This document shows positions 3,808-3,853 of a stretch of DNA of 7,540 bases, in pieces. The stretch comes from a virus (lineage: Duplodnaviria; Heunggongvirae; Uroviricota; Caudoviricetes): the IMG/VR virus record IMGVR_UViG_2660238573_000002. One strand, written 5' to 3'. The position numbers and the translations under genes were made by a program. Under the pieces are notes generated by a model that saw only the letters and a list, made by a program, of their open reading frames with translations, made no database searches and was not told where the DNA came from. Positions within the stretch are counted from its first letter, which is position 1. The number at the start of each line of letters is the position of its first letter.

Positions 3808-3853
3808 TCGCTTTTCAGCGACGTAGGACGAATGTCCGTTGTTACAAAGAGCG
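3808..3853 (-). promoter_or_regulatory. nutR-like N-utilisation site (boxA plus boxB)
   Basis: Minus-strand boxA CGCTCTTTGTAACAA (complement of 3839-3853), a 17-nt spacer, then boxB hairpin UCGC-UGAAAA-GCGA (complement of 3808-3821). It lies immediately downstream of cro and is mirrored by the nutL candidate at 6458-6502. Confidence 0.55.

Follow-up and report, generated by a model that had tools for sequence, protein, structure and literature searches.

Probable nutR and nutL sites of a VT2-Sakai-type lambdoid prophage and a boxB loop type that tracks the arginine-rich motif of N

The nut sites of phage H-19B are said to have been first dissected by Neely and Friedman in 2000, who reportedly named the stem-loop in the spacer a "reducer" and found that it could be replaced by way of compensatory mutations. 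[quoted passage not shown] Complexes of N with boxB in the PDB have pentaloops or hexaloops and come from P22, lambda and phi21; in that of P22, the looped-out C of the GACAA loop makes contact with the N peptide (PMC12550061). In lambda, boxA and an unstructured spacer of 8-9 nt precede a boxB with a GAAAA or GAAGA pentaloop (sequences in PMC2724277), which adopts a GNRA fold and is bound by an ARM. The rrn system has almost the same boxA core but works without an N protein, can dispense with boxB and has its elements in reverse order.

Here we describe the corresponding elements in a viral stretch of 7,540 nucleotides (IMG/VR record IMGVR_UViG_2660238573_000002), all of which is referred to as the window. 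It is a lambdoid immunity region in the orientation opposite to the usual lambda map, with the canonical gene order cII-cro-pR/pRM-cI ... pL-nutL-N, as judged from the map of open reading frames and Pfam. Since cI and N lie on the plus strand and cro, cII and the replication genes on the minus strand, pL fires rightwards (plus) and pR leftwards (minus). In a megablast search, positions 3300-7000 matched over their full length at 99.9% to the Stx2-converting phage 1717 and to phage 2851, at 99.8% to YYZ-2008 and at 99.6% to the Morioka Stx1/Stx2 phages and the PA series. The genes and signals that frame the nut sites are as follows.

4196-4849, plus strand: cI-type repressor (HTH_3 plus Peptidase_S24)
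6601-6873, plus strand: N antitermination protein, 90 aa (Pfam PF25694 N_peptide, E = 2.2e-31), with the N-terminal ARM KGTAASRRRARRANLQ; same coordinates as the N of VT2-Sakai
4079-3864, minus strand: cro
3722-3426, minus strand: cII (PF05269)
3245-2424, minus strand: O-type replication protein
Minus strand: DnaB-type helicase
6383..6411, plus strand: candidate pL promoter, TTGACC-17-TACTAT, from a promoter scan; coincides with the "putative major leftward promoter" of VT2-Sakai
4107..4135, minus strand: pR promoter, the "putative major rightward promoter" of near-identical records, placed by coordinate arithmetic
3753..3778, minus strand: tR1 region downstream of nutR, the "putative rho dependent terminator for pR transcript" of VT2-Sakai, mapped by coordinates; near-identical to H-19B nutR/tR1
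7172..7193, plus strand: terminator-like hairpin with a T-run downstream of N, candidate tL, from a terminator scan
7320..7337, plus strand: second terminator-like hairpin with a T-run in the pL operon, from the same kind of scan
736..759, minus strand: strong terminator-like hairpin in the pR operon, past the replication genes, from a terminator scan; candidate tR2-type target of antitermination

Within this frame, positions 3853-3808 (minus) and 6457-6502 (plus) are very probably the nutR and nutL of a lambdoid Stx prophage of the VT2-Sakai/1717 type, at which standard N-mediated processive antitermination is nucleated. Binding of N, usage of Nus factors and antitermination at these sites are predicted from homology. 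Their parts are these.

3808..3853, minus strand: whole nutR, with boxA, hairpin-bearing spacer and boxB, on the pR transcript after cro and before cII; identical to "putative N-utilization rightward" of VT2-Sakai
3839..3852, minus strand: nutR boxA region GCTCTTTGTAACAA, with C at 3853 just before it; agrees with the core CGCUCUU(U)A of rrn and lambda boxA (PMC2724277)
3838-3822, minus strand: nutR spacer CGGACATTCGTCCTACG, 17 nt
3826..3837, minus strand: nutR spacer hairpin GGAC-ATTC-GTCC, from folding; in relatives the stem is conserved or covarying and the loop variable
3808..3821, minus strand: nutR boxB TCGCTGAAAAGCGA, as RNA UCGCU-GAAA-AGCGA, a 5-bp stem with a GNRA tetraloop, from folding and covariation
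6457..6502, plus strand: whole nutL, with G at 6457, in the pL transcript upstream of N; identical to "putative N-utilization leftward" of VT2-Sakai
6458..6470, plus strand: nutL boxA region GCTCTTTAAACAA, invariant among 80 loci carrying this N
Between boxA and boxB, plus strand: nutL spacer CGTCGACTCTCGACTACG, 18 nt
6472..6484, plus strand: nutL spacer hairpin GTCGA-CUC-UCGAC, from folding; close relatives vary only in its loop, and the stem covaries in distant ones
6489..6502, plus strand: nutL boxB TGGCTGAAAAGCCA, as RNA UGGCU-GAAA-AGCCA, from folding and covariation

A reading of both strands bore out every sequence statement of the preliminary description of this DNA, namely both boxB elements, both boxA elements, the spacers of 17-18 nt and the inverted repeats GGAC/GTCC and GTCGA/TCGAC within them. 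The names nutR and nutL given there also fit in position, orientation, boxA, boxB, the presence of a cognate N gene and conservation. nutR lies 11 nt past the cro stop, ahead of cII and on the pR strand, and nutL lies between pL (6383-6411) and N (6601-6873). The boxA of nutR (CGCUCUUUG) and that of nutL (GGCUCUUUA) both resemble the consensus CGCUCUU(U)A and stand 5' of boxB (consensus from PMC2724277); the rrn core GCUCUUUAACAA is almost the same as GCUCUUUAAACAA at nutL (PMC2724277). The composite pattern GCTCTTT-N(1-4)-AACAA-N(10-25)-GCTGAAAAGC has exactly two matches in the window, one per strand, both pointing away from the repressor gene. The boxB stems of the two sites differ solely at pair 2, which is C:G in nutR and G:C in nutL. 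An Rfam scan of the whole window (E <= 1) returned no match at either site.

The same sites are already part of the public record, since VT2-Sakai (AP000422) carries an identical nutR, annotated as "putative N-utilization rightward" (window 3853-3814), and an identical nutL, annotated as "putative N-utilization leftward" (6457-6497). These annotations are "putative" only, end 5-6 nt before the 3' end of boxB and do not subdivide the sites into boxA, spacer and boxB. Nut sequence and position are identical, and the same 90-aa N is present, in VT2-Sakai and its Stx2-phage relatives 1717, 2851, YYZ-2008 and Stx2 II, and equivalent nut annotations exist in mEp234, phage 21 and Salmonella phage g341c. 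The start of N differs between public records: Stx2 phage II has 114 aa from an ATG at 6529 (6529-6873) and VT2-Sakai 90 aa from 6601. Since the start at 6601 lies 6 nt downstream of a GGAGG Shine-Dalgarno sequence and fits an N terminus, MS/TR(K/R)T, that is conserved across all relatives, the 114-aa call is probably an over-extension.

Several other elements of the window deserve mention. A 173-aa open reading frame (5351-5872, plus) occupies the place between cI and pL where lambda has rexAB; it is flanked by terminator-like hairpins at ~5220-5245 (plus; -15.9 kcal/mol, z = -4.5) and ~6174-6195 (plus), a moron-like arrangement, and its sole match is phrog_2602, of unknown function, Pfam and PADLOC having given none. 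At 3450-3477 (plus), antisense to the 3' end of cII, lies a hairpin of 12 bp with a T-run, in the position and orientation of the terminator of the lambda OOP antisense RNA. The sole Rfam hit of the window, RF02621 (E = 0.73, minus strand, 3432-3509), overlaps this hairpin and looks like chance. Neither boxB qualifies as an intrinsic terminator, as no U-run follows (the next sequence is GUCCCAAG at nutR and GAUCACCC at nutL) and neither appears in the terminator scan of the transcribed strand. The scan of the minus strand does report 6472-6484, where GTCGAGAGTCGAC is followed by GTTGTTTAAA; this is the nutL spacer hairpin and the boxA complement read backwards, and almost certainly not a terminator.

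The experimentally studied N/nut system of H-19B has the same scaffold. H-19B nutR/tR1 and the window are 92% identical over 75 nt, with the ACAA(C/T)G flank, the GGACAUUCGUCC hairpin (GGACATTCGTCC), UACG, the boxB stem UCGCU/AGCGA and the downstream tR1 region in common; the same scaffold is found in mEp234, HK106 and 933W-type phages. The two differ in boxA (GCUAUUUUCACAAU in H-19B, GCUCUUUGUAACAAC in the window), in N (127 aa with the motif RSRRRERLKAKALANG against 90 aa with the motif ASRRRARRANLQSQ, at 57% identity) and, by a single base, in the boxB loop, which is GACAA in H-19B and GAAA here. The long spacer with a stem-loop that marks the H-19B type is thus matched (17-18 nt, 4-5-bp hairpin), whereas its GACAA loop and its motif RSRRRERLKAK are absent from the window, which has GAAA and ASRRRARRANLQ. 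The window nut sites belong to the H-19B type in architecture and to a different group in specificity.

P22 shares with the window a 5-bp boxB stem closed by U-A, a GNRA-like loop fold and a C-terminal region of N (gp24) of the form ...LPxVALYAAGxxKSKQxTAR. It differs in its GACAA pentaloop, in a short spacer without a hairpin and in the motif TRRHERRRKL; the GAAA loop of the window would give the same GNRA fold as that of P22 without the looped-out C. The ARM of the window N, AASRRRARRANLQSQ, resembles that of lambda, AQTRRRERRAEKQAQW, but holds no residue equivalent to lambda Trp18. A sequence search of the window N, a short and largely disordered peptide, against PDB chains (E <= 10) gave no hit.

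The fold of the two boxB elements departs from what had been read off the sequence. A 4-bp stem with a UGAAAA hexaloop had been assigned to each; when folded as RNA, the isolated 14-mers form a 5-bp stem closed by a U-A pair and capped by a GAAA tetraloop. Spacer and boxB together form two adjacent hairpins at both sites, with free energies of -11.7 and -12.0 kcal/mol, z-scores of -3.1 and -3.2 and shares of the ensemble of 78% and 55%. When boxA is included, the minimum free energy structure of both sites pairs boxA with boxB.

Conservation was assessed among relatives sampled by their N protein and not by RNA. The close set consists of 80 IMG/VR loci whose N is at least 97% identical to that of the window. 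A scan of GTDB genomes with an N alignment gave only 12 loci, and IMG/VR with divergent N queries was used instead; in the wider set, made up of IMG/VR loci from these queries and the GTDB scan, N was located in 355 sources (loci, public records and the window itself). Among the close relatives, nutL has the same boxA and boxB throughout and all spacer differences fall in the hairpin loop (CTC, ACTC, ACAC, ATC, GCAC); nutR is constant from boxA through boxB, with at least three kinds of junction on its cro side. Across relatives the flanks ACAACG and UACG are nearly constant. In distant relatives both stems change in a compensatory manner, the boxB stem through TGGCT/AGCCA, AGGCT/AGCCT, CGGCT/AGCCG, TGGCC/GGCCA, TCGCT/AGCGA, TAGCT/AGCTA and TCACT/AGTGA, and the spacer stem through GTCGA/TCGAC, GGTGA/TCACC, GGCGA/TTGCC, GGAC/GTCC, GGCC/GGCC and GGGC/GCCC. 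Some of these variants (TAGCT/AGCTA, TCACT/AGTGA and CGGCT/AGCCG in boxB, GGCC/GGCC and GGGC/GCCC in the spacer) come from outside the set of 40 sites counted below.

In 40 distinct sites of the tetraloop class, the two hairpins have 96.3% of cells paired, and 7 of the 10 pairs have changed on both sides, including 4 of the 5 pairs of the spacer hairpin; these relatives are related by descent, so that the counts are phylogenetically non-independent. The covariation score is 0.444, a value that none of 500 shuffles reached (shuffled mean 0.099), and slid registers give at most 0.061. The site finder required a boxB stem, which makes the 100% pairing of boxB partly a matter of construction; the spacer hairpin was no criterion, and extraction of sites anchored on boxA required no stem. 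In a MAFFT alignment that included pentaloop sites the loop indel fell at the 3' end, and these five sequences were left out of the pair counts and handled separately. The single compensatory change between nutR and nutL, which had been taken as covariation pointing to a functional hairpin, is weak on its own, and it is the relatives that give this idea real support. They keep the elements, with compensatory changes, where their loss had been named as the finding that would count against the sites, and they turn the small spacer repeats into a conserved, covarying hairpin.

These comparisons bear on the view that the inverted repeats are chance palindromes, or protein-binding sites at the DNA level, and not RNA structures. 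The stems are short, at 4-5 bp, and short repeats in two copies are common by chance, as the 10-mer GCTGAAAAGC alone, with one mismatch allowed, turns up two or more times in 30 of 200 shuffles. The composite of boxA, spacer and boxB, however, arises in 0 of 200 dinucleotide shuffles, the spacer stem contains G-U wobble pairs that are valid on the transcribed strand only, the sites lie outside the annotated operators, and loop type is coupled to the RNA-binding motif of N, as set out below. With compensatory change at so many pairs, the covariation effectively refutes this view, which we regard as barely credible.

The pairing of boxA with boxB raises the alternative of an RNA switch, in which boxA would pair with the boxB loop and 3' arm (GCUCUUU with AAAAGC) around the spacer hairpin and so regulate access of N or NusB/E. 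Computed for leaders of 61 nt, this fold is the minimum at both sites (-17.2 and -14.2 kcal/mol), and it takes up 98% of the ensemble at the nutL of the window and 39% at nutR, and 86.9% of the cells concerned can pair across relatives. Yet those cells lie in columns kept constant on other grounds, as the consensus of boxA and boxB; only one of seven pairs has changed on both sides, the one pair that varies fails to form in 17 of 40 sequences, and a further pair is lost in 8 of 40 through a GCAA loop. Its covariation score, 0.047 against a shuffled mean of 0.026, is no better than that of slid registers (up to 0.055), and in 36 of 45 distinct relatives the two hairpins prevail on thermodynamics alone; the pairing was rejected as a conserved feature on these grounds. 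The nutL of the window is among the nine exceptions because of a single G before boxA, and natural variants with U in its place (L030, L059) flip nutL to two hairpins. The z-scores of the leaders are unremarkable (-1.6 and -1.2), and co-transcriptional folding would favor the local boxB hairpin. We consider a switch of this kind very unlikely.

The probable course of events at the two hairpins can be outlined on the pattern of other nut sites. In RNA made from pR or pL, boxA would be left single-stranded, the spacer would form its short hairpin, and boxB would carry a GAAA tetraloop on a stem of 5 bp; the arginine-rich N terminus of N (6601-6873) would bind boxB. NusA would engage the spacer, by analogy with other nut RNAs (PMC2724277, PMC3526286), and NusB/NusE may bind boxA. 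The complex would stay tethered to RNA polymerase and confer resistance to downstream terminators, the likely targets being the Rho-dependent tR1 just past nutR and the intrinsic terminators at 736-759 (minus) and at 7172-7193 and 7320-7337 (plus). The spacer hairpin would most likely fold away extra nucleotides, bringing the flanks ACAACG/UACG and boxB to a working distance from boxA. Such a length-reducing role is the one reportedly ascribed to the H-19B hairpin by Neely and Friedman (2000).

Alternatively, in sites that are still nut sites, the spacer hairpin may be an active recognition or anti-Rho element that presents the spacer to NusA or occludes a Rho loading site overlapping nutR. 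H-19B nutR, in which the spacer is identical, shows footprints of Rho and of N-NusA on the spacer, of which RNase T1 reaches only two G (PMC3526286). NusA is also a ligand of the spacer in lambda (PMC2724277), and the near-invariance of ACAACG and UACG would suit an active role. On the other hand, the stem sequences are freely exchanged (GTCGA, GGTGA, GGCGA, GGAC, GGCC, GGGC) and the loop varies in sequence and in length, from 3 to 5 nt, which argues for recognition of shape and not of sequence. Moreover, nutL keeps the hairpin without a known overlapping Rho-dependent terminator, and deletion of the H-19B spacer hairpin is said to be tolerated. We therefore hold an active role to be unlikely, and favor the hairpin as a length reducer.

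What sets these sites apart is a boxB loop of four bases, in keeping with the type of N that the phage itself encodes. Where N carries a motif of the window type (RRR[A/E]RRA-x-LQ), the nutR loop is a GAAA or GCAA tetraloop in 121 of 122 sites; where it carries the H-19B type (RRRERLK), the loop is GACAA in all 67 sites. P22-type motifs go with a GCGCU-GACAA-AGCGC boxB and a short spacer, and lambda-like motifs with GAAAA/GAAGA pentaloops. Natural chimeras separate motif from backbone. Two of them (L200 and L218) combine an N body of the H-19B type with a motif of the window type and have tetraloops at both nut sites. The reverse combination, a window-type body with an H-19B-type motif, is found in only one N (L115), with GACAA at both nut sites, and its boxB elements stand on scaffolds of the tetraloop class, TGGCC-GACAA-GGCCA and TCGCC-GACAA-GGCGA. 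With chimeras in both directions, the loop is seen to follow the motif of N and not the protein backbone.

Six loci (L131 and five similar ones) have GAAA at nutL and GCAA at nutR. The occurrence of both loops within one phage suggests that the second loop base is free for this class of N, as expected for GNRA recognition. One locus, IMGVR_UViG_2531839234_000006 (L051), has an N at least 97% identical to that of the window together with a lambda-type nutR, CGCTCTTACACATTCCAGCCCTGAAAAAGGGC, with a GAAAA pentaloop, ~1.1 kb upstream of N on the opposite strand. This could mean that the lambda-like motif of this N cross-recognizes the lambda boxB, or that the prophage is recombinant and defective.

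As a tentative proposal, which we hold to be possible and short of probable, N of the VT2-Sakai type (G-[ST]-x-A-x-RRR-[AE]-RRA-x-LQ) and its boxB may form a distinct, undescribed and structurally uncharacterized specificity class. Its boxB would have a true GNRA tetraloop (GAAA/GCAA) with no looped-out base, one loop nucleotide and a replaced C-terminal half of the ARM would separate it from the GACAA class of H-19B/P22, and the switch would have recurred by recombination on shared nut/N scaffolds. We found no open-access description of a natural GNRA-tetraloop boxB, of the spacer "reducer" or of the nut sites of 933W/VT2-Sakai, older phage-genome papers being outside the coverage of that search. 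The nut sites as such are already known, and the only novelty might be the natural tetraloop-boxB specificity class with its one-base, motif-coupled switch to GACAA.

Other observations concern the wider nut family. At the nutR of five loci (L201, L202, L218, L088 and L090) boxA is degenerate or missing, as in CACCACTTCCAACAACGG at L201, and the ACAACG flank, hairpin, UACG and boxB are kept; since hairpin and boxB persist beside a degenerate or absent boxA, this suggests that boxA is dispensable, or the need for it relaxed, in part of the family. In H-19B itself (L001) there is no GCTCTT upstream of nutL, around 2660-2700. A further class of N, starting MANIVYGKSLNPVGKDNAKSRRNARRAEE, occurs in ten IMG/VR loci with the same architecture of boxA and spacer hairpin (GCTCTTTGTAACAACGAGCGGGAAGCTCTACGG) and a quite different boxB, GGTGC-CGAGAAC-GCACC, with a 7-nt loop, so the spacer-hairpin design is common to several N specificities. 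N genes of this Escherichia phage type also appear on short GTDB contigs of unrelated taxa, namely L086 (97% identical N) and L092, both in Segatella copri MAGs, and L089 (394 nt, Xanthomonas pisi), probably through binning or assembly contamination.

The nut sites as found here matter little in themselves, as they are expected in a well-sequenced family of Stx2 prophages and already annotated there. N-dependent antitermination controls the early genes of these phages and hence, indirectly, the route to late gene expression and to Shiga toxin. In lambda, the base looped out of boxB plays a part in the NusA step. A natural tetraloop boxB has no such base, and none like that which touches the N peptide in P22, so that the way its complex assembles could inform a well-used model of peptide-RNA recognition and the design of orthogonal N/boxB tethering tools. 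For this family of phages, the change of one loop base that tracks a swap of the arginine-rich motif is a clean natural case of RNA-protein co-variation.
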